A stretch of 27,190 nt of DNA, taken from positions 1 to 27,190 of the IMG/VR virus record IMGVR_UViG_3300020045_005998. One strand, given 5' to 3'. Below are positions 18,489 to 27,190 of this stretch, piece after piece. Positions within the stretch are counted from its first letter, which is position 1, and each line of letters begins with the position of its first letter. Under the pieces are notes generated by a model that saw only the letters and a list, made by a program, of their open reading frames with translations, was not told the DNA's origin and did no database searches. The position numbers and the translations under genes are program-made. Origin of the DNA: a virus. Its lineage: Duplodnaviria; Caudoviricetes.

Positions 18489-19163
18489 TTAACCGAGAAC
18501 CGCCGCAGAACCAAGAGGGTCTTCCGCTTCGTTTACTTTAGCACCTTTGGTCTTCACTTTACCTCCGGCCTTCTTGCTCTCTGTCTTTTCGTCCTTTGTA
18601 GTCTCAGGAGTTCCCCGTTTCACTGGGAGATCCCATGTATACCCGTTGTCCCCCCACTGGCTCGTAAGTGAAGTGAGAGTCGAATCATCCCCTTCTCCCC
18701 AGTAGTTGGCAAATAGATTATTTATCCGAGCTTGCTTAGTGGCGTCGTCAATTGAGTAGTCAAGACCCACGACCTGGGCGTGGCCCATCTCGTCAGCCAC
18801 TTGCTGATTTATCTCTGCCGTAGCCTTCTCGGCTGCGTCGAATTTTCTGGAGTAGAGATCGGAAATCTGAGAGAGTGCCGCTTGTCGTCGGGCTTCTTCT
18901 TGCTGTGCGGCCATTACTGCGGCGTAATCAGTTTGCTGGTACATCGAACTGAAGTCCGGCATCTCAAACGACATACCCTCGCCTTGACTCTCGTAAGCTG
19001 CCCGTGCAGCTTGCCAACCTTTTATAGCGCCCTGATTGAGGTTGGAGTTCGAGGGACCGAGCTTTTGCATGTACTGTTCATCGGTCATATTTGGGTCAAA
19101 AGAGTTGTATCCGGTGTTATACCCCTGCGTTTGCCTATCGTAAGAACTTTGCTGTTGTCCCAT
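18489..19163 (-). CDS. hypothetical protein (224 aa, Gln/Ala-rich), probably virion-associated
   Basis: Co-oriented ORF in the late operon. Its start lies within the 3' end of the upstream GNAT-like ORF. Confidence 0.65.
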   Translation of the reverse strand: MGQQQSSYDRQTQGYNTGYNSFDPNMTDEQYMQKLGPSNSNLNQGAIKGWQAARAAYESQGEGMSFEMPDFSSMYQQTDYAAVMAAQQEEARRQAALSQISDLYSRKFDAAEKATAEINQQVADEMGHAQVVGLDYSIDDATKQARINNLFANYWGEGDDSTLTSLTSQWGDNGYTWDLPVKRGTPETTKDEKTESKKAGGKVKTKGAKVNEAEDPLGSAAVLG

Positions 19164-19705
19164 TCCTTCATGTCCTCTCGATGTAATTGAACAAGTACCC
19201 CGTCTACTACCTTATTATCCCTATACGCCAAAATAAAAGAATCTGTCAAGGTACATTTAACACTAAAGCCAATCTTTTTCAAGAAATTAATTGACAATCG
19301 GTTCGTGATCGGACTCAGGCCGCAGATCGTTGTCAACTTTTCTCCTAGAGGGGGCATTTTAAATTCGAAAATTTGCTGTAAGGCTTCTCGAGTCATTACC
19401 AAGTCTTTTCCTCCGTGGTAAAGAGGGTGAACCGAGTAGTGCATCATGGCCGACCTCCCGTTGAAGAAGTAGAGGGAGCACTCTCCGGCCACTCTCATAT
19501 CTTCCGTGTCCCAGACAGCGATATTGCAGTATGATGGGTCGTAAAGCGAGGTTATCACAGTCTGAATAGAGGCGTTTTTGGCTCCAGGGAATCGGTACTT
19601 TAGAAGTCCCGCAGTTATTAAGTCCTGCCAGTATTGGTAAACAACGGCGTACTCGAAGAGACCCTTCTTGTTGTCCAGTATGACCGGCACATATCGGAAG
19701 TCCAT
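19085..19705 (-). CDS. GNAT-fold acetyltransferase-like protein (RimJ/RimL-like)
   Basis: Motifs 'AMMHYSVHPLYHG' and 'NRLSINFLKKIGF' (N-x-x-S-x-x-x-x-x-K-x-G-F). RBS AAAGGAG. Confidence 0.7.
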   Translation of the reverse strand: MDFRYVPVILDNKKGLFEYAVVYQYWQDLITAGLLKYRFPGAKNASIQTVITSLYDPSYCNIAVWDTEDMRVAGECSLYFFNGRSAMMHYSVHPLYHGGKDLVMTREALQQIFEFKMPPLGEKLTTICGLSPITNRLSINFLKKIGFSVKCTLTDSFILAYRDNKVVDGVLVQLHREDMKEWDNSKVLTIGKRRGITPDTTLLTQI

Positions 19706-19886
19706 CAGTCATCTCCTTTGTTAAACTCCCTACCTTTAAAAATGTCTATCAGAGATCCACCATTATTAACGTGGTCAGCAAGCGACTTTCCATCTTTCTC
19801 ACTGAATTTTATAGTGAAATTTTTTCCTTTTCTTGTCACCTTTGTTTTTTGCTGTCTCTTTTCCATCAGTCGTCTCCTTTGTTGAA
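19701..19886. repeat. 25-bp direct repeat flanking the 53-aa gene
   Basis: 19701-19725 TCCATCAGTCATCTCCTTTGTTAAA vs 19862-19886 TCCATCAGTCGTCTCCTTTGTTGAA (23/25 identical). Confidence 0.9.
19705..19866 (-). CDS. small basic hypothetical protein (53 aa), absent from the ORF track
   Basis: MEKRQQKTKVTRKGKNFTIKFSEKDGKSLADHVNNGGSLIDIFKGREFNKGDD*. TGATG coupling at both ends and AAAGGAG RBS; it fills the gap exactly. Confidence 0.75.
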   Translation of the reverse strand: MEKRQQKTKVTRKGKNFTIKFSEKDGKSLADHVNNGGSLIDIFKGREFNKGDD

Positions 19887-21275
19887 GTAGTCGAGGCAGT
19901 TATAACCAGCCGATGCATCATAATCGTCTTCGTCCGTCAGTCTGTTCAGTTCGTCACGGAGCTTGCCGTAGTGTCCCACGTTCGTAGGCTTTATATTATC
20001 GTCATCTTCCTCTGCGAAGGTGAGTTTCACTGCGTCGAGGAGATTGGGAGAAGGAACTCCTCTCGACTTCATTGCTTTCTTGCTTTCCTGCTTCACCTTG
20101 TTGTCCATCCCATCATACTCGACCATCGGAGTTGACATCTCCCGTATCAACTTTTCGTCCTGCGGGACGTAGGGCCGGGGAACTTGCATCAGCCACTTCT
20201 TCAAACGGCCCATCATAAGGCTTGTCATGTTGGAATAAAGGTTGTCTGGGGAGGTTCCCCCAAAGTCGATCGGTATTACGATCTCCTTGTACCGTGAATC
20301 TATCTGCCAGAGCCTTGAATACACACCTTCTCCCCTTCCAGCGTCGATAAATATGAGGTCTGGGCGAAATTCCCGCGCCTCACGGTCGATAATCGAGGCA
20401 AAAGTCATATTATCCCGACCTTTGTAGGCCTGAACCGGGTGTAAGAGCCTTCCTTGCCTCTTGGCTATGGCCGCATCGTCACCATTCACTGCAAAAGCCA
20501 CATCAACACCCATAATTTTCTGCATGTGACTGACTTCATCGGGTGTTACATGCATCTGAGTGCAGGGTTTTATCAGTTCCAGAGGTATAAAGGTATCTTC
20601 TGTCGAGGCCAACCAATCATTATAGAACTCTTGCTTGATTAACGACTCCGGCATCCCGGCCAATCGTTCCTCTTCTATGGCTTCTAAGGTCGGTATTCCG
20701 GTGTCGTCCCTTGTCAGCAATTCATAAAACCACAAGGGGTTTTTCTGAGCCATCTGGGCCATGGTGTAGGCGTGATTCATTCCTCTCACAGTACAGTTAA
20801 AAACAGCCCAACCATTATTTTCAGCAAGTACGGGTCTTAGGATGTCCCAAGAGTACACCTTGCACAAAGACCATTCTGTATAGAGCAGTCCTACCGGGTT
20901 CCCACCAACCAAGGAGTCGGGCTTGTCAGCCCCGCCGAATCGTAGAATTGATCCGTTGATGAACTCGACAGACATTTTGGTTTCGTAGGTTTGCTTTATT
21001 ACCTGAGGAGGGATGTAGTCAAGGAACCGTCGGCCTTCTTTGTCCATGCCTTCCCATAAAGCTTTCCTGCATTGATCATAATAGGGTGCCACATAAAGGT
21101 ACAACCCTACTCTTTGCAGTGCTTTAGCGATAATGGCGTTCAGGCATATAAGGTCCTTCCCGTTGCGTCGAGGCCAAATTATGAATGATCTCGATATGTT
21201 ATCAATGACGAACGCTTTCCAAAAATTCTGCTGGTAAGGGCGCAGTGTTAAATTGTAAGGTAGAGTGATGTTCAT
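19866..21275 (-). CDS. terL: terminase large subunit
   Basis: Adenine-binding LRPYQ, Walker A WPRRNGKD, Walker B-like LLYTEW, coupling motif FNCTVRG, and RNase H-like nuclease motifs MGVDVA / DD / IFIDAG / SPNLLDA. Confidence 0.93.
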   Translation of the reverse strand: MNITLPYNLTLRPYQQNFWKAFVIDNISRSFIIWPRRNGKDLICLNAIIAKALQRVGLYLYVAPYYDQCRKALWEGMDKEGRRFLDYIPPQVIKQTYETKMSVEFINGSILRFGGADKPDSLVGGNPVGLLYTEWSLCKVYSWDILRPVLAENNGWAVFNCTVRGMNHAYTMAQMAQKNPLWFYELLTRDDTGIPTLEAIEEERLAGMPESLIKQEFYNDWLASTEDTFIPLELIKPCTQMHVTPDEVSHMQKIMGVDVAFAVNGDDAAIAKRQGRLLHPVQAYKGRDNMTFASIIDREAREFRPDLIFIDAGRGEGVYSRLWQIDSRYKEIVIPIDFGGTSPDNLYSNMTSLMMGRLKKWLMQVPRPYVPQDEKLIREMSTPMVEYDGMDNKVKQESKKAMKSRGVPSPNLLDAVKLTFAEEDDDNIKPTNVGHYGKLRDELNRLTDEDDYDASAGYNCLDYFNKGDD

Positions 21276-21890
21276 TTAAAGATACTCCAATTCATCAAAA
21301 TTTAAACATGCAAATTCCCCGTAATTCATCAAGGCAAACCGATCATAAGCTCTGGCGGCCTCTTCTGGAGTCGAGAACCTACCTATATTTATCCTCTTCT
21401 TGTCGAGCACACCTTGCGCCTTCCATCTCTTGCTTTCTTTCTCAAAATAAACACCTTTAAACCCCGAGGTACTGTCCTGTCTTGTTGACGCATTATACTG
21501 ATTCTGCTGTTTAGTTGTTTCCCTCAGATTAACTATCCGATTATCACTTCTATTACGATTTATGTGATCCAGTTCTCCTTTCGGCCACACCCCATGCGTA
21601 TAGAACCAAGCCAACCTGTGTGCCTGAAATACCCTACAATCTACTCCGATGCAGATATACCCATGAATTACCGTCCCTGCTGTACTCCCTACCTTTCGAC
21701 CTCCACGCACCGTCGTCCTCTTAAAATCCCCCGTTTCTGGGTCATAAGTCAGCAACTCCTTCAACCTTTCCAACGTCAACGGCTTTTCTTTTCTTCCGTT
21801 GCGGCCTATTCTTGTCGTACCACTTCCTACAGTAGCAACTCGGGCATTTGTTGGGGAGCTTATCTGTTCGTTGATACCAGTCATAACCAC
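21276..21890 (-). CDS. HNH homing endonuclease with C-terminal AP2 domain (true start uncertain)
   Basis: AHRLAW, DHINRNRSDNRIVNLRE (HNH_3-type) and SGFKGV...RWKA...GRFSTPEEAARAYD (AP2). Family-like sequence begins only at LTLERLKELLTYDPETG (TTG at 21779). The first 37 codons of the track ORF are the off-frame reading of a zinc-ribbon gene. Confidence 0.88.
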   Translation of the reverse strand: MVMTGINEQISSPTNARVATVGSGTTRIGRNGRKEKPLTLERLKELLTYDPETGDFKRTTVRGGRKVGSTAGTVIHGYICIGVDCRVFQAHRLAWFYTHGVWPKGELDHINRNRSDNRIVNLRETTKQQNQYNASTRQDSTSGFKGVYFEKESKRWKAQGVLDKKRINIGRFSTPEEAARAYDRFALMNYGEFACLNFDELEYL

Positions 21891-21912
21891 AATCCTCGCA
21901 ATGAAGTTTCAT
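21742..21912 (-). CDS. zinc-ribbon protein A (56 aa), absent from the ORF track
   Basis: AGGAGGT-aatt-ATG start. MKLHCEDCGYDWYQRTDKLPNKCPSCYCRKWYDKNRPQRKKRKAVDVGKVEGVADL*. Clear paralogue of 23148-23387. Confidence 0.85.
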   Translation of the reverse strand: MKLHCEDCGYDWYQRTDKLPNKCPSCYCRKWYDKNRPQRKKRKAVDVGKVEGVADL

Positions 21913-21934
21913 AATTACCTCCTAATTTACAAGG

Positions 21935-21963
21935 ATAGTACATTGGAATGGACTTATTGTCAA
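21935..21963 (-). promoter_or_regulatory. sigma70-type promoter for zinc-ribbon A/HNH
   Basis: TTGACA-17 nt (ataagtccattccaatg)-TACTAT, about 20 nt upstream of the start codon. Confidence 0.8.
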
Positions 21964-21971
21964 CAACTTTC

Positions 21972-22346
21972 TCACAGATCCTCCAAATCGTCGTGGTCTT
22001 CTTCTCCAAAAAATATCGTATCCGCAATCGCCCCTTTCAACCAGCCCATCAGGTAAGCAACCAACTCTTCATCTCTCTGCATCCCCCTCTGGTCACAAAT
22101 TCCGAACGCGACATGCACCAACTCGTGAAACACCGTGGAAGCAGTCTCTTTTGGATCTCTGACCCACACGTAAATGTTACTATCACCGCCCTTAATAATG
22201 CAACACCCCAGCCCATCTATGAACTCAACCACCGTTCGCAGTCCTTCCAGGTCATAGACGGCGGCATTGGCTTCATTTACGTCACAATCGTGGACGACGA
22301 CAATATCGTTTTCAAATATCGGCACCCGGACGGTGAATATCTTCAT
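21972..22346 (-). CDS. HExxH-motif (zincin-like) hypothetical protein
   Basis: TVFHELVHV followed by DEELVAYL; ATGA-coupled to terS with a GGAGG RBS. Confidence 0.65.
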   Translation of the reverse strand: MKIFTVRVPIFENDIVVVHDCDVNEANAAVYDLEGLRTVVEFIDGLGCCIIKGGDSNIYVWVRDPKETASTVFHELVHVAFGICDQRGMQRDEELVAYLMGWLKGAIADTIFFGEEDHDDLEDL

Positions 22347-22363
22347 AGATCCTCCAAATCGTC
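21972..22363. repeat. 21-bp direct repeat flanking the HExxH gene
   Basis: 21972-21992 TCACAGATCCTCCAAATCGTC vs 22343-22363 TCATAGATCCTCCAAATCGTC (20/21). A weaker copy lies at 21276-21296 (16/21). Confidence 0.9.
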
Positions 22364-22933
22364 TATAATGCCCGCCTGTGCGTCGTAAGTAATGGTGAAG
22401 GTGTCAGTAGCCTCTACATCCTGATCGATGACTTGTGAGGCGCTGAGGGCTTCTACGAGTGGTAAAGGGGCGCTTATCCCAAGAATGTTTATATTGAGCT
22501 GATTATCTTTCGCATTAAGAGTTTCCTGTAGTATTTTTTCACTTCTCCCAAAGTACGCACTCAGGAGGAACTTCAGGAACGCATGTGGTATCGTCTCCCT
22601 GAGACCGTTGTTGATATAGTAGTCCTCTATGTGCGTCCGTGCGACGTGGAGAACGTCCAGGCTTTCCTCCGGGTAAGCTGACGGGTCATCTTCCGCCACC
22701 TGCATTATGTGCAACAGTGCGTCGAAGGATCGTAGCCCAAGCGCCATGGCGAGGCCTGGGGGTGTCGGGTGCCTTCGATCTTCCGGGTCAGCCGTCAGCA
22801 TAGAGAAATAGTCCACGACCTTCATTCTCAGCTGGTTGGGGTCGGCCATGACCCGAGATGGGGGGTAGGCCCGTGGTAGCTTAACGAGGGTTGGGAGGTT
22901 TGTTGTAGCTTCGTTGTCTGTTTGTGTGTTCAT
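22343..22933 (-). CDS. terS: terminase small subunit (P22 gp3-like DNA-packaging protein)
   Basis: The pattern 'PNQLRMKVVDYF...PTPPGLAMALG...ARTHIEDYY...FLLSAYFGRSEK' fits the gp3-type TerS family; upstream of terL. Confidence 0.72.
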   Translation of the reverse strand: MNTQTDNEATTNLPTLVKLPRAYPPSRVMADPNQLRMKVVDYFSMLTADPEDRRHPTPPGLAMALGLRSFDALLHIMQVAEDDPSAYPEESLDVLHVARTHIEDYYINNGLRETIPHAFLKFLLSAYFGRSEKILQETLNAKDNQLNINILGISAPLPLVEALSASQVIDQDVEATDTFTITYDAQAGIIDDLEDL

Positions 22934-22945
22934 GGATATAGGGTA

Positions 22946-23326
22946 TCACAACTCGTCAAGTTCGTCAATGTCCGTTGGTGTTAAGTGGGTTTGTGGGGTT
23001 CGGCTTTTTGACTTGTGGTAGTTCTCATATACCTCTTTGAACTCGAACGCCCATCCTTTTAAACTGACGCACTTAACTCCTCTACCATTTACAAAAGTAT
23101 ATACCTTCGGTAGTCCGGGTTTAGAACAGAAGACCATACTGCGGCTGTCATAAGTCATCCAAGTCCGTAATAGTTCTGTAGTCAGGTGCTTGTGCCTCAG
23201 TTGTCCCTTTGGGAAAAGGTTGAGGAATTTGGCTTGTACCTTCTCTTCCCGGCGCAGTGCGTTTCGGAGTTCTGTTCGGGTCGTTCCATTTCTTACATCG
23301 GCATTTTGGGCAGCTTGCGGGATCAT
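22946..23326 (-). CDS. degenerate HNH-N-terminus-like protein overlapping zinc-ribbon B (start uncertain)
   Basis: LTTELLRTWMTYDSRSMVF aligns with LTLERLKELLTYDPETGDF of the HNH. It has no HNH catalytic motif or AP2 domain. Confidence 0.5.
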   Translation of the reverse strand: MIPQAAQNADVRNGTTRTELRNALRREEKVQAKFLNLFPKGQLRHKHLTTELLRTWMTYDSRSMVFCSKPGLPKVYTFVNGRGVKCVSLKGWAFEFKEVYENYHKSKSRTPQTHLTPTDIDELDEL

Positions 23327-23387
23327 CTTCTTTCCTCTTTATCCATGTGTGGTTGCAGTATCTACAGGTGAGCTTCGGTATAGTCAT
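23148..23387 (-). CDS. zinc-ribbon protein B (79 aa)
   Basis: CRYCNHTW...PASCPKCRCKKWND, with an AAGGAG RBS and a promoter directly upstream. Confidence 0.8.
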   Translation of the reverse strand: MTIPKLTCRYCNHTWIKRKEDDPASCPKCRCKKWNDPNRTPKRTAPGREGTSQIPQPFPKGTTEAQAPDYRTITDLDDL

Positions 23388-23411
23388 TGTTATAATCTCC
23401 TTATGCTTCCT

Positions 23412-23440
23412 GTTGTACTCTACGAAGTAGAGTGTGTCAA
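23412..23440 (-). promoter_or_regulatory. sigma70-type leftward promoter with palindromic spacer
   Basis: TTGACA-17 nt-TACAAC with an A-rich UP-like tract. The spacer holds ACTCTAC-TTC-GTAGAGT (23417-23433). Confidence 0.75.
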
Positions 23441-23510
23441 TGTTTATTTTTTGGTATCTGATGTGAGGGTGTAATTTTTTATGGTGCGGGTTGTAGCCAG
23501 GATGAGTGTT

Positions 23511-23631
23511 GAGTTAATTAACGTAGGATGTTGAAATCGTGCTAGTGTGTGAGTTAATTAACGTAGGATGTGGGAATGGTGCGATGTTGTAGTTAATTAA
23601 CATAGGATGTGGGAATGGTGCTAGTGTGTGA
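23511..23631. repeat. 3 x ~40-bp tandem repeat with palindromic core GTTAATTAAC
   Basis: Units start at 23511, 23551 and 23590; consensus GAGTTAATTAACGTAGGATGTGGGAATGGTGCTAGTGTGT. Confidence 0.9.
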
Positions 23632-23763
23632 ATCGACCTTTCGGGCGCCTCCGAACTTTCCAAATTCCCCCCCGGCACCCGTCTCAGCCTGGGATCATAG
23701 AAAGTTAGTTAATTGTTGCAGGCTAGGCGTGAGAATTAATTAATTAATTACCACATTTATAAC

Positions 23764-23836
23764 GTTAAGATTAGTTAAAGTGACACAATGCAGTACATTT
23801 TCATGTTAAGATTAGTTAAATTGCCACATTGTAGTA
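23764..23836. repeat. 2 x 41-bp-period direct repeat
   Basis: GTTAAGATTAGTTAAAGTGACACAATGCAGTA (23764) vs GTTAAGATTAGTTAAATTGCCACATTGTAGTA (23805). Confidence 0.85.
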
Positions 23837-23876
23837 TAAAAAATCAATTAATCCTTCCATTTTTGTTGATAGTTGA

Positions 23877-24093
23877 GAGGGTATCAATTTTCGGTGAACA
23901 CTCTTTCTTCAATAAATTGAGAAGGTTAAGGACTTTAAGAAAAAAATGCGACCTTCTATCTATTTTATATTTACATTTTTCTATAATTTTTTTTTTGTGA
24001 AATTTTTCGCTAAAAAGCCTTACCATTCTCAATTCATTACACTTTTTCACTATCCACCAGGGTATCAACCAAGGTGGTGAGGGTATCAATTTT
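23877..24093. repeat. dispersed AGGGTATCAA motif (3 copies)
   Basis: GAGGGTATCAATTTT at 23877-23891 and 24079-24093; AGGGTATCAA at 24059-24068. Confidence 0.75.
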
Positions 24094-24189
24094 GCCAATT
24101 TTCGTAACATTTTCATAAAATTTCGTGTTATCCTGACAAACGTCGAATCACTGAACAATGAAGGAAATGCGATAATTGTTAATTAATGG

Positions 24190-24217
24190 TTGCAATCCTG
24201 ATCAGGTGATGTATAGT
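24190..24217 (+). promoter_or_regulatory. putative sigma70-type rightward (early) promoter
   Basis: TTGCAA-16 nt-TATAGT. The spacer contains the palindrome CCTGATCAGG; upstream sequence is AT-rich. Confidence 0.55.
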
Positions 24218-24272
24218 TTGATTAACAGTAAACAATGTTTATTAATTAATTCTACCTTGGAGATTGAAAACC

Positions 24273-24449
24273 ATGAAAACGCCCACCACTAAAAAGTCCT
24301 CATTTAACCGTATCCCTCAAAAGAATTTGAGTATCCGTGACTGGAAGGAAATCAATCGCATTATGAACGAGCTGAAACTGGAAGATACCGCCAGTCTGGT
24401 TACTCTTATTGAAGGTCAAAGACAACAAAGAAACATTTTCTTTGATTAA
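24273..24449 (+). CDS. hypothetical protein (first early-type gene)
   Basis: GGAG lies upstream; ATG 24273 is preferred over TTG 24264 on RBS spacing. Confidence 0.55.
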   Translation: MKTPTTKKSSFNRIPQKNLSIRDWKEINRIMNELKLEDTASLVTLIEGQRQQRNIFFD

Positions 24450-24484
24450 TCGCTTAACAACAACTTAACAGGGAGAAAATTATC

Positions 24485-25144
24485 ATGGAAAGCATACTGA
24501 CAAAGAATCAAACAAAGACTATGTCAAAGGTAATCGGTAATGAGCGGCTATCCGTCGTTATCCGTTACGACGATGAATGCAACAATGGCCATAATTCTTT
24601 TGCGATTACGGCAACGTTATCGGAAAAAATACCCTACAAAACAAAATATACTACCTGGCGTAAAGTATCATGGGGTTGCCAACACGACGAAGTTAAGCGG
24701 TTCTTTCCTGAACTCGAACCATACCTCAAATGGCATTTGTGTAGTTCCGACGGTCCTATGCACTATACAGCTAACACCTTGTATTTTGCTAGCGACAAGG
24801 ATTATAATGGATTGAGGAAAGGGGAAAAGCGACAAATAATAAACGGCCGCACCAAATTACCGTCTTGGATACTGGCAACGATAGACGAAAACGGCGAAGA
24901 AGTTAAGCCGGATCGGTACCTTGACAGCGAAACAGAACCGACTATCACCTATACAACTAAGTATATCCCTTGGTGCAGAATAGGCGAAGGAAAAGAGCCG
25001 GAGCTCGAATTAGCCCGTTCTTCCGCTATTTGGCCGGATGCAACAATAGAACAATTGCAAGATAAAGATCTTCTCCTTGCCCGTTTACCAAAACTCCTAC
25101 AGGAGTTTAAAGAAGCTGTAGAAAGCCTGGGTTTTGTTTATTAA
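24485..25144 (+). CDS. hypothetical phage protein (219 aa, Cys/His motifs)
   Basis: GGGAG RBS; motifs YDDECNNGHNSF, GCQHDE and KWHLCSSDGPMHY. Function unknown. Confidence 0.8.
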   Translation: MESILTKNQTKTMSKVIGNERLSVVIRYDDECNNGHNSFAITATLSEKIPYKTKYTTWRKVSWGCQHDEVKRFFPELEPYLKWHLCSSDGPMHYTANTLYFASDKDYNGLRKGEKRQIINGRTKLPSWILATIDENGEEVKPDRYLDSETEPTITYTTKYIPWCRIGEGKEPELELARSSAIWPDATIEQLQDKDLLLARLPKLLQEFKEAVESLGFVY

Positions 25145-25204
25145 GTAGCTTATAAAGCGCAACAATTAACAATCCAATTGTTGCGCTTTGTTGGTTGTAC
25201 TTAA
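25141..25204 (+). other. long intergenic stem-loop (terminator or RNA processing site)
   Basis: Perfect 14-bp stem AAAGCGCAACAATT / AATTGTTGCGCTTT (25154-25189), extended by an outer TTAAGTA / TACTTAA stem. Confidence 0.75.
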
Positions 25205-25247
25205 CAAAGAAGCGAAAGGCAGAATATCAAACTAATGAGGTGAAAAG

Positions 25248-25514
25248 ATGAAAATTTTATCAATTGATGCATGGGGAAACAAAGAAGACGGATACGACTG
25301 GAATCAATGGTTCCATGTGGGCAACATAGGCAAAGCAGTCTTCGAAGCATTGAAAACAGACAAGCAAATCGCTCAATACTTCTTTGTCAATGGCTATACC
25401 ACTAATTCCGATATGCGCCGGATTACCGTCTATGATGATCAGCATAGTATCGTCCTGTGTGAGAAGAAAACAGGCCAACCATTGTTCGCCATTGAATACG
25501 GACCGGAATATTAA
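25248..25514 (+). CDS. hypothetical protein (88 aa)
   Basis: GAGGTG RBS; co-oriented in the early cluster. Confidence 0.8.
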   Translation: MKILSIDAWGNKEDGYDWNQWFHVGNIGKAVFEALKTDKQIAQYFFVNGYTTNSDMRRITVYDDQHSIVLCEKKTGQPLFAIEYGPEY

Positions 25515-25547
25515 GCAATTAACAATCAAAAACTGGAGAAAACGATA

Positions 25548-25820
25548 ATGAAAACCCATAAGTATATAATTAATCAGGTAAAACACGCTATACGTAATCC
25601 ATATGCCTGGCCGGGTGGGTATCCAGTATATACCCTTATGTCCGATGGTGAAATGCTATGCTCTACTTGCGCTCGTGATAACTTTCGACTGATAGTGCAG
25701 GCAACAAAGGATAACTGGCGGGACGGTTGGCAAGCAGAAGCTACAATGATAAACTGGGAAGATAACGACGCCTATTGTTGTCATTGCAACAAAAAATTAG
25801 AATCAGCCTATGGTGAATAA
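25548..25820 (+). CDS. hypothetical protein with CxxC...CxHC zinc ligands (90 aa)
   Basis: GGAG RBS; YAWPGGYP, LCSTCA and YCCHCNKKLESAYGE. Confidence 0.8.
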   Translation: MKTHKYIINQVKHAIRNPYAWPGGYPVYTLMSDGEMLCSTCARDNFRLIVQATKDNWRDGWQAEATMINWEDNDAYCCHCNKKLESAYGE

Positions 25821-25821
25821 C

Positions 25822-26373
25822 ATGCGAGAAATAATAACAGTAACAAAAGCCTATACTTTCGACGAATTGACTCCCGAGCAAAAGGAAAAAGCAATCGAAA
25901 ACCTTTATGACATAAACGTCTATTATGATTGGTGTGAATTCACCTACGAAGACGCAGAAAACATAGGCTTAACAATTACCTCGTTTTACCTCGATTATAA
26001 CACCATAGAGGGGAAATTTAACCTTTACCCATTGGATATTTGCAGAGCGATTTTCAAAGAGCATGGCAAGGATACTCCAACTTATCGATTGGCAATGGCA
26101 TACGTGAAAGAACGTGAGAATTTAATAGCGGGGCAATGCCAACATCAAGCTGATTGCTGGACATGGCCAGGAGAAAAAGACTGGGATTATTTGCAAGAAC
26201 AACCTTGGGATATAGACTACGAAGACCTTGATAATGAATTCCATCATTCTTTAAAAGAAGAATACCTTTCAATGCTCAGACAGGAGTATGAATACCTTAC
26301 CAGTAAAGAAGCCATAATCGAGACGATAAAAGCAAACGAGTATGAATTTAATGAGGAGGGTGAGTTGATATGA
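25822..26373 (+). CDS. acidic hypothetical protein of the YTFDEL...EYEYLTS...ANEYEF family
   Basis: Very Asp/Glu/Tyr-rich. From memory, the terminal motifs match a family often auto-annotated 'antitoxin of toxin-antitoxin stability system'; that function is unverified. The start is 25822 or 25810. Confidence 0.7.
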   Translation: MREIITVTKAYTFDELTPEQKEKAIENLYDINVYYDWCEFTYEDAENIGLTITSFYLDYNTIEGKFNLYPLDICRAIFKEHGKDTPTYRLAMAYVKERENLIAGQCQHQADCWTWPGEKDWDYLQEQPWDIDYEDLDNEFHHSLKEEYLSMLRQEYEYLTSKEAIIETIKANEYEFNEEGELI

Positions 26374-26627
26374 CACGGACACTGACACAAATTTACAAAA
26401 GGCAAGCTGCGTATGTGAGAAACTCCGGCTTTACTGTTACCGTAGACGAAAAATATTGCTATGTAGTCATTGAGAACAAAGAAACGGAACAGTGTTATTT
26501 TTTGCAAGGTGATGAGGGTTACGCCTATATAGACGAGTATCGGGACATATGGGAAAAAGCTGGTGATCTTCTAATGTGTGACGCAATTTATGGACACGCT
26601 CAACAATATATCGATTGTTTAGATTAA
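26370..26627 (+). CDS. hypothetical protein (85 aa)
   Basis: ATGA-type overlap with the upstream stop; GAGG/GGTG upstream. Confidence 0.75.
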   Translation: MTRTLTQIYKRQAAYVRNSGFTVTVDEKYCYVVIENKETEQCYFLQGDEGYAYIDEYRDIWEKAGDLLMCDAIYGHAQQYIDCLD

Positions 26628-26659
26628 ATAGATAACCAATAAAACAGAAGGAAATCGAA

Positions 26660-26848
26660 ATGAAAATGAAAAAATACTATTGGTACATGAATAATATAAA
26701 TGATCCAGTAGTAAAATCAAAAATACCAAACTGTTTCTTTCATACAATAAAGGCAAAGAGTTTATTCGAAGCAAAGAAAGCGGTGCGGGAGTTGTTATTC
26801 TGTAAAAGAATTGCACAAGAACATCTAACAGGAGGAAACAAACCATGA
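26660..26848 (+). CDS. small basic hypothetical protein (62 aa)
   Basis: AAGGA RBS; ATGA overlap with the next gene. Confidence 0.6.
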   Translation: MKMKKYYWYMNNINDPVVKSKIPNCFFHTIKAKSLFEAKKAVRELLFCKRIAQEHLTGGNKP

Positions 26849-27102
26849 AAGTTACTCAATTTCATTCCAAAAACCAATTTATCATCGACACACATGAAGG
26901 CACCTACTTCCAATCTTATAAAAGCATAATTGCATTTTTACCGCTAGACTGTTCGCCGATTATTCTTGACGAAGTTTACTGGGATTATTCACCCACCACG
27001 AGTAAATACCTCAACAAATTTTTACGGATCACTGGTGGACGAAAAGAGATTCTTGATGGTATCAAGTCCGGCAAGTATGTTTTAACCAATTTAAATCCAT
27101 AA
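26845..27102 (+). CDS. hypothetical phage protein (85 aa)
   Basis: AGGAGG RBS; FQSYKSIIA...WDYSPTTSKYLNKFL, a motif I recall from small phage early proteins. Confidence 0.8.
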   Translation: MKVTQFHSKNQFIIDTHEGTYFQSYKSIIAFLPLDCSPIILDEVYWDYSPTTSKYLNKFLRITGGRKEILDGIKSGKYVLTNLNP

Positions 27103-27148
27103 ACTCGTTTCATGCGATAACCGGAACAAGTCCTCCGGTATCGTTTCC

Positions 27149-27185
27149 AATCCCTTGTCACAGAACAAAGTGACAAGGGATTTTT
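27149..27185 (+). terminator. rho-independent terminator
   Basis: AATCCCTTGTCAC-agaacaaa-GTGACAAGGGATT is a 13-bp stem ending in TTTTT, downstream of the early cluster. Confidence 0.8.
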
Positions 27186-27190
27186 GCGTT

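Follow-up and report, generated by a model that had tools for sequence, protein, structure and literature searches.

Homing endonuclease genes (HEGs) of the IPA-HNH type have been reported beside terminase genes (PMC10448857). For I-TevI and the seg/mob genes of phage T4, an operator over the promoter and overlaps with upstream open reading frames (ORFs) limit endonuclease expression (PMC2988022), and the small C.PvuII gene heads its own promoter and overlaps a nuclease gene whose translation starts independently (PMC2997769). The Vibrio satellite PLE encodes CapR, a DNA-binding protein that derives from HEGs but has no nuclease; it contains a four-cysteine zinc finger and represses a morphogenesis operon (PMC8096241). 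Here we analyze two units, A (21276-21963) and B (22946-23440), in the podovirus-like phage of IMG/VR record IMGVR_UViG_3300020045_005998, for which the window is the entire 27,190-base contig and all coordinates are window positions. Each unit consists of a promoter-like site, a short zinc-ribbon (ZnR) ORF and a partner ORF that overlaps the ZnR in the +1 frame, probably from a nested start. We lean towards the reading that the ZnR controls its own promoter, that unit A is a homing cassette and that unit B is a nuclease-less derivative of such a cassette.

Unit A resembles the IPA-HNH HEGs and I-HmuI (PDB 1u3e) in its HNH_3 and AP2 domains and its terminase-adjacent location, and from its sequence the nuclease appears to be an ordinary IPA-HNH type gene near terminase, predicted to home. 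It differs in having a separate, promoter-bearing ZnR gene over its 5' end, a leader not mentioned in the accessible part of PMC10448857. Like the C proteins of type II restriction-modification (R-M) systems, the ZnR is a small promoter-proximal gene that precedes or overlaps a nuclease or R-M gene. C proteins, however, are helix-turn-helix (HTH) proteins that bind C-boxes, whereas the ZnR is a C4 zinc ribbon, and the overlap is 140-180 nt here against about 20 nt there. In the T4 cases the nuclease itself represses, and the overlaps are of 1-24 nt with host genes, whereas in the present units the promoter comes with a small dedicated gene. By analogy, the layout would work like a C-protein/R pair and serve the purpose of I-TevI autorepression, while belonging to neither. 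CapR is a precedent for the possible domestication of unit B; it derives from T5orf172/GIY-YIG HEGs, is encoded by a satellite and has another phage as its target, whereas unit B would be HNH-derived, split over two frames and active in cis. We regard the layout as a variant of known control logic. A literature search, which covered mainly the main texts of openly accessible papers, returned no paper on such a ZnR leader. An earlier note on this DNA knew of no described system with this layout.

All elements of both units lie on the minus strand. In unit A, promoter-like site A (21935-21963; a consensus match only) consists of TTGACA (21963-21958), a 17-nt spacer and TACTAT (21940-21935), and a TAC-N7-GTA dyad spans the -10. 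The ribosome-binding site (RBS) AGGAGG (21918-21923; anti-Shine-Dalgarno duplex -10.8 kcal/mol) precedes the 56-residue ORF of ZnR A (21742-21912), with the core CxxC-x3-W-x2-R-x4-P-x2-CPxC-x4-W. Within the codons of the first CxxC lies a nested GAGGA and ATG (21882-21897, ATG at 21884; duplex -5.9), the likely start of a 202-residue HNH-AP2 endonuclease of IPA-HNH type in the +1 frame (21276-21884); the final ~13 residues of ZnR A are a -1 shadow of this frame. Unit B repeats the order. Promoter-like site B (23412-23440; TTGACA at 23440-23435, 17-nt spacer, TACAAC at 23417-23412) is the first such site ahead of the late operon and contains a 7-bp inverted repeat with a 3-nt loop (23433-23427 and 23423-23417). 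The RBS AAGGAGA (23396-23402; duplex -9.3) precedes the 79-residue ORF of ZnR B (23148-23387), made up of a 39-residue core and a 40-residue tail that overlaps the second ORF. A nested AGAGGA and ATG (23324-23338, ATG at 23326; duplex -6.0) is the likely start of this second ORF, the B partner, with 126 residues in the +1 frame (22946-23326) and coding-like codon use. The single architecture that the earlier note had claimed for both units, with a strong RBS on each ZnR, is therefore borne out. The inverted repeat that it had placed at each -10 stands above shuffled sequence in B (p 0.016) and not in A (p 0.33).

The two ZnR cores are related, with 16 of 42 aligned columns identical, including all four ribbon cysteines. 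The protein collection contains the 202-residue HNH protein and the 126-residue B ORF of this contig and neither ZnR, so both ZnRs escaped gene calling, not ZnR A alone as had been thought. In a codon model built from 15 genes of the window, coding frames scored +0.35 (sd 0.13) per codon and +1 frames -0.43 (sd 0.18). The HNH body scored 0.17 in its own frame versus -0.53 in the other, and the body of the B partner 0.12 versus -0.42. Over the ZnR cores and the B tail, which are short segments, both frames scored near zero, an intermediate value that dual coding predicts. An open +1 frame over a ZnR was discarded as a sign of dual coding, since it is common among stand-alone ZnRs.

A profile of the two window ZnR cores found 657 representatives at E<=0.001. 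An exact DNA pattern of a 27-residue motif matched at least 121, at least 77 and at least 120 viral loci in three scans and 121 loci in genomes, many of them archaeal and others, by record title, from Acidobacteria, Dehalococcoidia and Nitrospira; a narrower pattern matched 119 metagenome loci. By scan estimates, viral contigs with a member number in the hundreds, and stored genome stretches with one about a thousand. It is widespread and mostly stand-alone. One unannotated, stand-alone member lies in a Nitrosopumilaceae spindle-shaped virus (L002:2501-2617; BK067788.1). Against Pfam, the window ZnRs gave nothing above the curated cut-off (best E 0.009-0.07), and tblastn with the ZnR on phage records gave weak rows only. 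The AlphaFold2 (AF2) model of ZnR A is confident (predicted local distance difference test, pLDDT, 85.5); its fold search against the PDB returned nothing at E<=0.001, and the weaker matches include RNA-binding and protein-binding zinc ribbons. The 38 ZnR members compared matched 40 families, and the 25 of these that were listed include no HTH family.

We compared the gene neighbours on the two sides of the ZnR. The viral set held 226 unique motifs among the matches listed, 152 of them with at least 700 nt on each side; segments of at least 60 codons were scanned (148 downstream or fused, 135 upstream). Pfam domains of homing endonucleases occurred downstream of or fused to the ZnR at 17 of the 152 loci and upstream at 2 (Fisher p 5e-4), and comprised HNH_3, HNH, Endonuclease_7, NUMOD3, GIY-YIG and MUG113/T5orf172. 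The 17 loci, two of which (L283 and L193) are kin, divide into 4 in-frame fusions, 7 partners in +1 and 6 in +2. In-frame fusions recur (L015, L063, L065, L186). Six further partners that looked nuclease-like by eye were left uncounted; one, L208, is an in-frame fusion to what appears by eye to be a LAGLIDADG-type nuclease, with no Pfam match. The HNH family of unit A itself stands behind a ZnR in several ways: fused in L063, in +1 without a near start in unit A and L071, and with an ATG of its own in L083 (+1, with an internal stop) and L160 (+2). The pairing of ZnR and HNH expected in the earlier note thus exists and extends to unit A's own HNH family, but it is not specific to HNH; since fused, +1 and +2 registers all occur, the +1 overlap does not define it. 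In phage record MW427215.1 we observed an unannotated 41-residue zinc finger (L003:664-789) with a promoter-like site ahead, overlapped in +1 by an HNH gene whose annotated ATG lies inside the CxxCG codons, the register seen in unit A.

The two sides were also compared outside viruses. In genomes, an R-M or nuclease gene lay downstream of the ZnR at 8 of 71 loci and upstream at none (65 and 57 segments scanned), and in metagenomes DNA methylases of five Pfam families lay downstream at 15 of 50 loci (43 segments scanned), with one methylase and one PD-(D/E)XK protein upstream (39 segments scanned). Many of these metagenome loci are close kin from one archaeal-type subfamily, so the counts are not independent and p values overstate their independence. 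This subfamily, eleven loci of which were noted, heads the five methylase families, and many of its members carry a TACTATAGTA-like palindrome directly ahead of a TATA-like box. The same ZnR is also fused to Sigma70_r4 (P0107), and four in-frame fusions to Fic were seen. At ten loci, several of them assigned by eye, a ZnR stands directly ahead of replication-initiator-like genes or antirepressors, a Cro-like position. Judged from its position and by analogy with C proteins, the ZnR is likely to be a portable controller of nuclease and R-M genes.

Promoters are enriched ahead of the family. A sigma70-like promoter, called as a -35/-10 pair scoring at least 9 of 12 within 100 nt of the start, was present at 64 of 192 viral ZnR starts compared with 14 of 308 control ORF starts (p 1e-17). 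After palindromes had been seen in front of the methylase-linked subfamily, four post-hoc patterns were compared with 100 shuffles. The TAC-N2-10-GTA dyad, present in both window promoters, occurred upstream at 32 of 168 viral loci (shuffle mean 21.4, maximum 30), at 26 of 60 genome loci (mean 12.4, maximum 18) and at 24 of 70 metagenome loci, a count equal to the shuffle maximum. As a candidate operator of ZnR promoters this dyad is suggestive only.

The partner of unit A is an intact HNH-AP2 nuclease, as first described: HNH_3 matches at E 1e-16 and a C-terminal AP2 domain at E 6e-11, the catalytic D-H, N and N residues are present, all residues invariant in a 29-sequence alignment are kept, and the protein matches I-HmuI at E 4e-8. 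Unit A is likely, on this sequence evidence, to be a homing-endonuclease cassette inserted between the terminase genes terS and terL. Mobility at this site was sought through relatives of the flanking genes; no close terL relative with DNA context was found in viral contigs and no such terS relative in phages, terS relatives being found as proteins only. Two distant podoviruses (L599 and L600) have no annotated HNH ahead of terL.

The B partner, by contrast with its counterpart, has no nuclease and no AP2 domain, as claimed earlier; it gave no Pfam or PHROG match. What links it to the N-terminal domain of the HNH proteins is a set of weak predicted-structure matches, its register and one database relative. 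Of the 10 structure rows for its Atlas model, 7 come from HNH/NUMOD4/AP2 clusters and align to residues 41-107, and its alignment to a hidden Markov model (HMM) of the HNH N-terminus falls in the expected register. P0049 is a ZnR with the same ending as ZnR B, and its tail fits the +1 frame of B at 13 of 24 positions, compared with at most 12 in 8009 null windows; a second genome therefore probably encodes a B-type unit. Other routes to relatives gave none: the search returned the B partner itself only, its degenerate DNA motif had 0 matches in metagenomes, tblastn among the fetched loci gave none at E<0.05, and three rows against phages were at chance level. A fold search of its single-sequence AF2 model (pLDDT 38) was uninformative. 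We suggest that residues ~41-107 probably form an HNH-type N-terminal (NUMOD4-like) DNA-binding domain, with no nuclease core or AP2 domain behind it. Descent of the B partner from an HNH N-terminal domain seems to us quite probable.

Both ZnRs end, as had been noted, in the identical sequence GACTTATGAC, which occurs within the window only at 21750-21741 and 23156-23147. The possibility that this stop is a recoding signal was rejected, because a -1-frame stop at the Y-D codons is present in 12 of 32 HNH relatives that lack any ZnR; the shared 10-mer arises from the T-Y-D codons. The exact 10-mer occurs in none of the 32, which modestly favours kinship of the A and B partners. The DEL(E/D)xL ending of the second ORFs, offered as a further shared trait, is present in both and is not specific to them. 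It was rejected as a hallmark of the cassette, since terS has such a tail too: terS and the 124-residue ORF that follows it (ORF124) end in DDLEDL. An acidic-Leu hexapeptide thus ends four consecutive ORFs, HNH, ORF124, terS and the B partner (21276-21296, 21972-21992, 22343-22363 and 22946-22966); two ZnR shadows aside, the remaining 17 listed ORFs of the window lack it. It is kept in 7 of 7 aligned terS relatives, and the gene ends of terS and ORF124 are identical at 20 of 21 nt. At insertion, ORF124 and HNH may have captured their tails from the 3' end of terS, together with the RBS of the following gene; such capture does not account for the tail of the B partner, whose position is upstream of terS. 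The hexapeptide could be a docking tail or a captured RBS.

A nested ATG lies at the head of each window partner, behind a usable Shine-Dalgarno sequence. The 114 viral ZnRs that have no long +1 partner serve as background: an open nested ATG occurs in 22 of them and a Shine-Dalgarno match that strong in 1; the metagenome set is higher, at 31 and 4 of 60. All four independent nuclease cases without a start near the conserved N-terminus (unit A, L071, L089 and L283/L193) have a nested open +1 ATG (p about 0.001 against 22 of 114, the cases having been picked by eye), which favours separate initiation over a +1 frameshift; nested starts are the most likely route to the partners. The alternative is a programmed +1 frameshift within the Lys-rich stretch that closes the ZnR core, which would yield a ZnR-HNH or ZnR-B partner fusion, in the style of IS1 InsA/InsAB. 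The natural in-frame fusion of L063 fits this, as does GAAGAAAAGAAA, which stands in both unit A and L071 right before the conserved HNH start, where neither has an ATG. Lys runs end most ZnRs, however, and so do not discriminate; a frameshift would not require the open upstream +1 frame with an ATG found in all four cases; and L083 and L160 carry their own ATG at the HNH start. A frameshift would be marked by a conserved shift site and no independent second start, whereas a nested or own ATG was present in every case examined. We regard frameshifting as unlikely.

In the mechanism that we cautiously favour, each unit would produce one transcript, from which the ZnR would be translated from its strong RBS and the partner from the weaker nested one, so that controller would be plentiful and nuclease scarce. 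The ZnR would bind near the -35 and -10 and damp or time transcription, as C proteins do for restriction enzymes. The B partner would have retained only the DNA-binding N-terminal domain, and the promoter of unit B would now also feed terS and the downstream late genes. Unit B is likely to be an older derivative that lacks the nuclease and has been retained as the first element of the late operon; that it regulates this operon is the weakest step of the mechanism, and we think it less likely than not. Several observations weigh against ZnR control of the promoter. No endonuclease Pfam partner was found at 135 of the 152 viral ZnR loci, and an overlapping zinc finger was seen in 0 of the 31 relatives that the HNH of unit A has among viruses; one of four phage records inspected does, MW427215, with a finger of a different family. 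The -10 of site B is poor and lacks the final T, and the second of the two TTGACA-17 promoters put forward in the earlier note, although present, was missed by the consensus scan. Across 71 promoters there is no family-wide excess of inverted repeats (Wilcoxon p 0.24; repeats at p<=0.05 in 9 of 71 ZnR promoters compared with 4 of 28 controls). Of the motifs, TATGAT was enriched most; it was rejected as an operator because an extended -10 explains it, and a stricter dyad in viral loci reached 7 of 168, equal to the shuffle maximum of 7. Neither a solved structure nor a Pfam family identifies the ZnR as a DNA-binding protein. The lack of a ZnR in most relatives of the unit A HNH and of a clear family-wide operator would suit a ZnR that is a small gene in its own right, with a good promoter behind which endonuclease and R-M genes insert for expression without being regulated by the ZnR; most ZnRs are indeed stand-alone or ahead of replication initiators and antirepressors, and the registers vary freely. 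On the other hand, the enrichment of nuclease and R-M genes is one-sided and directly downstream, and the repeated in-frame fusions and the single subfamily ahead of five methylase families fit a functional pairing. We find such independence rather improbable. Instead of acting on a promoter, the ZnR might act on protein or RNA, by inhibiting the nuclease, serving as its cofactor or regulating translation. This would agree with the RNA- and protein-binding zinc ribbons of such size among its weak PDB matches, and the nuclease and Fic fusions suit a cofactor. One small protein would then need to recognise a wide range of unrelated folds (HNH, GIY-YIG, methylases, replication initiators), whose common denominator is instead the promoter-proximal position of the ZnR, and we think this very unlikely.

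For unit B, the question is whether its second ORF is related to HNH proteins at all. The similarity to HNH N-termini proposed in the earlier note was not significant in any sequence test, and predicted structure is only suggestive. BLAST gave E 0.32, the N-terminal HMM from 35 HNH relatives scored 2.3 bits (54 of 2000 shuffles as high) and hhalign gave a probability of 1.4%; all Atlas rows for the B partner fall under the naming bar, and the Atlas feature search led to an unrelated HTH family. Together with the low pLDDT, this would be expected if an orphan gene simply overlapped a stand-alone ZnR and the T-Y-D match were chance, a state of affairs that would touch unit B only and is compatible with the rest. 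However, register and frame are those of unit A, the exact 10-mer is shared despite its absence from the 32 HNH relatives, the Atlas structural neighbours are mostly HNH N-terminal regions and a second genome probably encodes the same motif; we therefore give chance overlap a minority place, one to be taken seriously. The acidic-Leu tail raises a different possibility, in which the HNH would be a packaging cofactor like the HNH of HK97 (PMC10448857) and the tail would dock terS, ORF124, HNH and the B partner on terminase. The position of the HNH between terS and terL, the conservation of the tail in terS relatives and its restriction to the four neighbouring ORFs would agree with this. Yet the HNH-AP2 architecture is of the homing type, and capture of the terS 3' end and RBS can explain the tail, though not that of the B partner; we consider a packaging role most improbable.

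The genomic setting is a single minus-strand late operon with terS, terL, portal, protease, capsid and tail genes, while small plus-strand genes start from 24264. Both units flank terS, and unit B is the first element of the operon. Behind it follow the probable small terminase terS (22343-22933; GP3_package E 6e-5, under the cut-off), ORF124 between terS and unit A (21972-22346; phrog_1365) and, beginning immediately past the HNH stop, terL (19866-21275; phrog_2 E 2e-31), all on the minus strand. The terL gene and the next, 53-residue ORF have a common FNKGDD end, with 92% DNA identity over 25 nt (19701-19725 and 19862-19886), and form a second duplicated gene end and RBS in the operon. At the terL/portal junction lies a GNAT-like ORF (19085-19705), as in L599 and L600. 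An AT-rich non-coding gap separates the divergent gene blocks and contains repeats at 23505-23627, 23757-23836 and 23911-24038: three tandem 39-bp copies, two 39-bp copies spaced 41 nt, three repeats of GAGGGT(A/G)T type and one 37-bp inverted repeat. It is possibly an origin, an operator array or a packaging region. Rfam gave 0 matches across 19000-27190.

The means by which a carrier is protected from free-standing homing endonucleases and incoming R-M systems are known for a few models only (T4, PvuII). If the favoured reading is correct, a tiny ZnR dropped by gene callers would be a testable, non-HTH controller, notably for archaeal R-M systems. More broadly, and speculatively, the ~40-residue C4 ZnR might represent an unrecognised class of portable prokaryotic transcription controllers used by homing endonucleases, R-M operons and phage replication modules in bacteria and archaea; here one cassette would have lost its nuclease and left two overlapping remnants as a switch heading the packaging and structural operon. 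For annotation, a ZnR can lie concealed in HNH genes whose N-terminal extensions look odd. Unit B would offer a test case of domestication, with an intact copy in the same genome.

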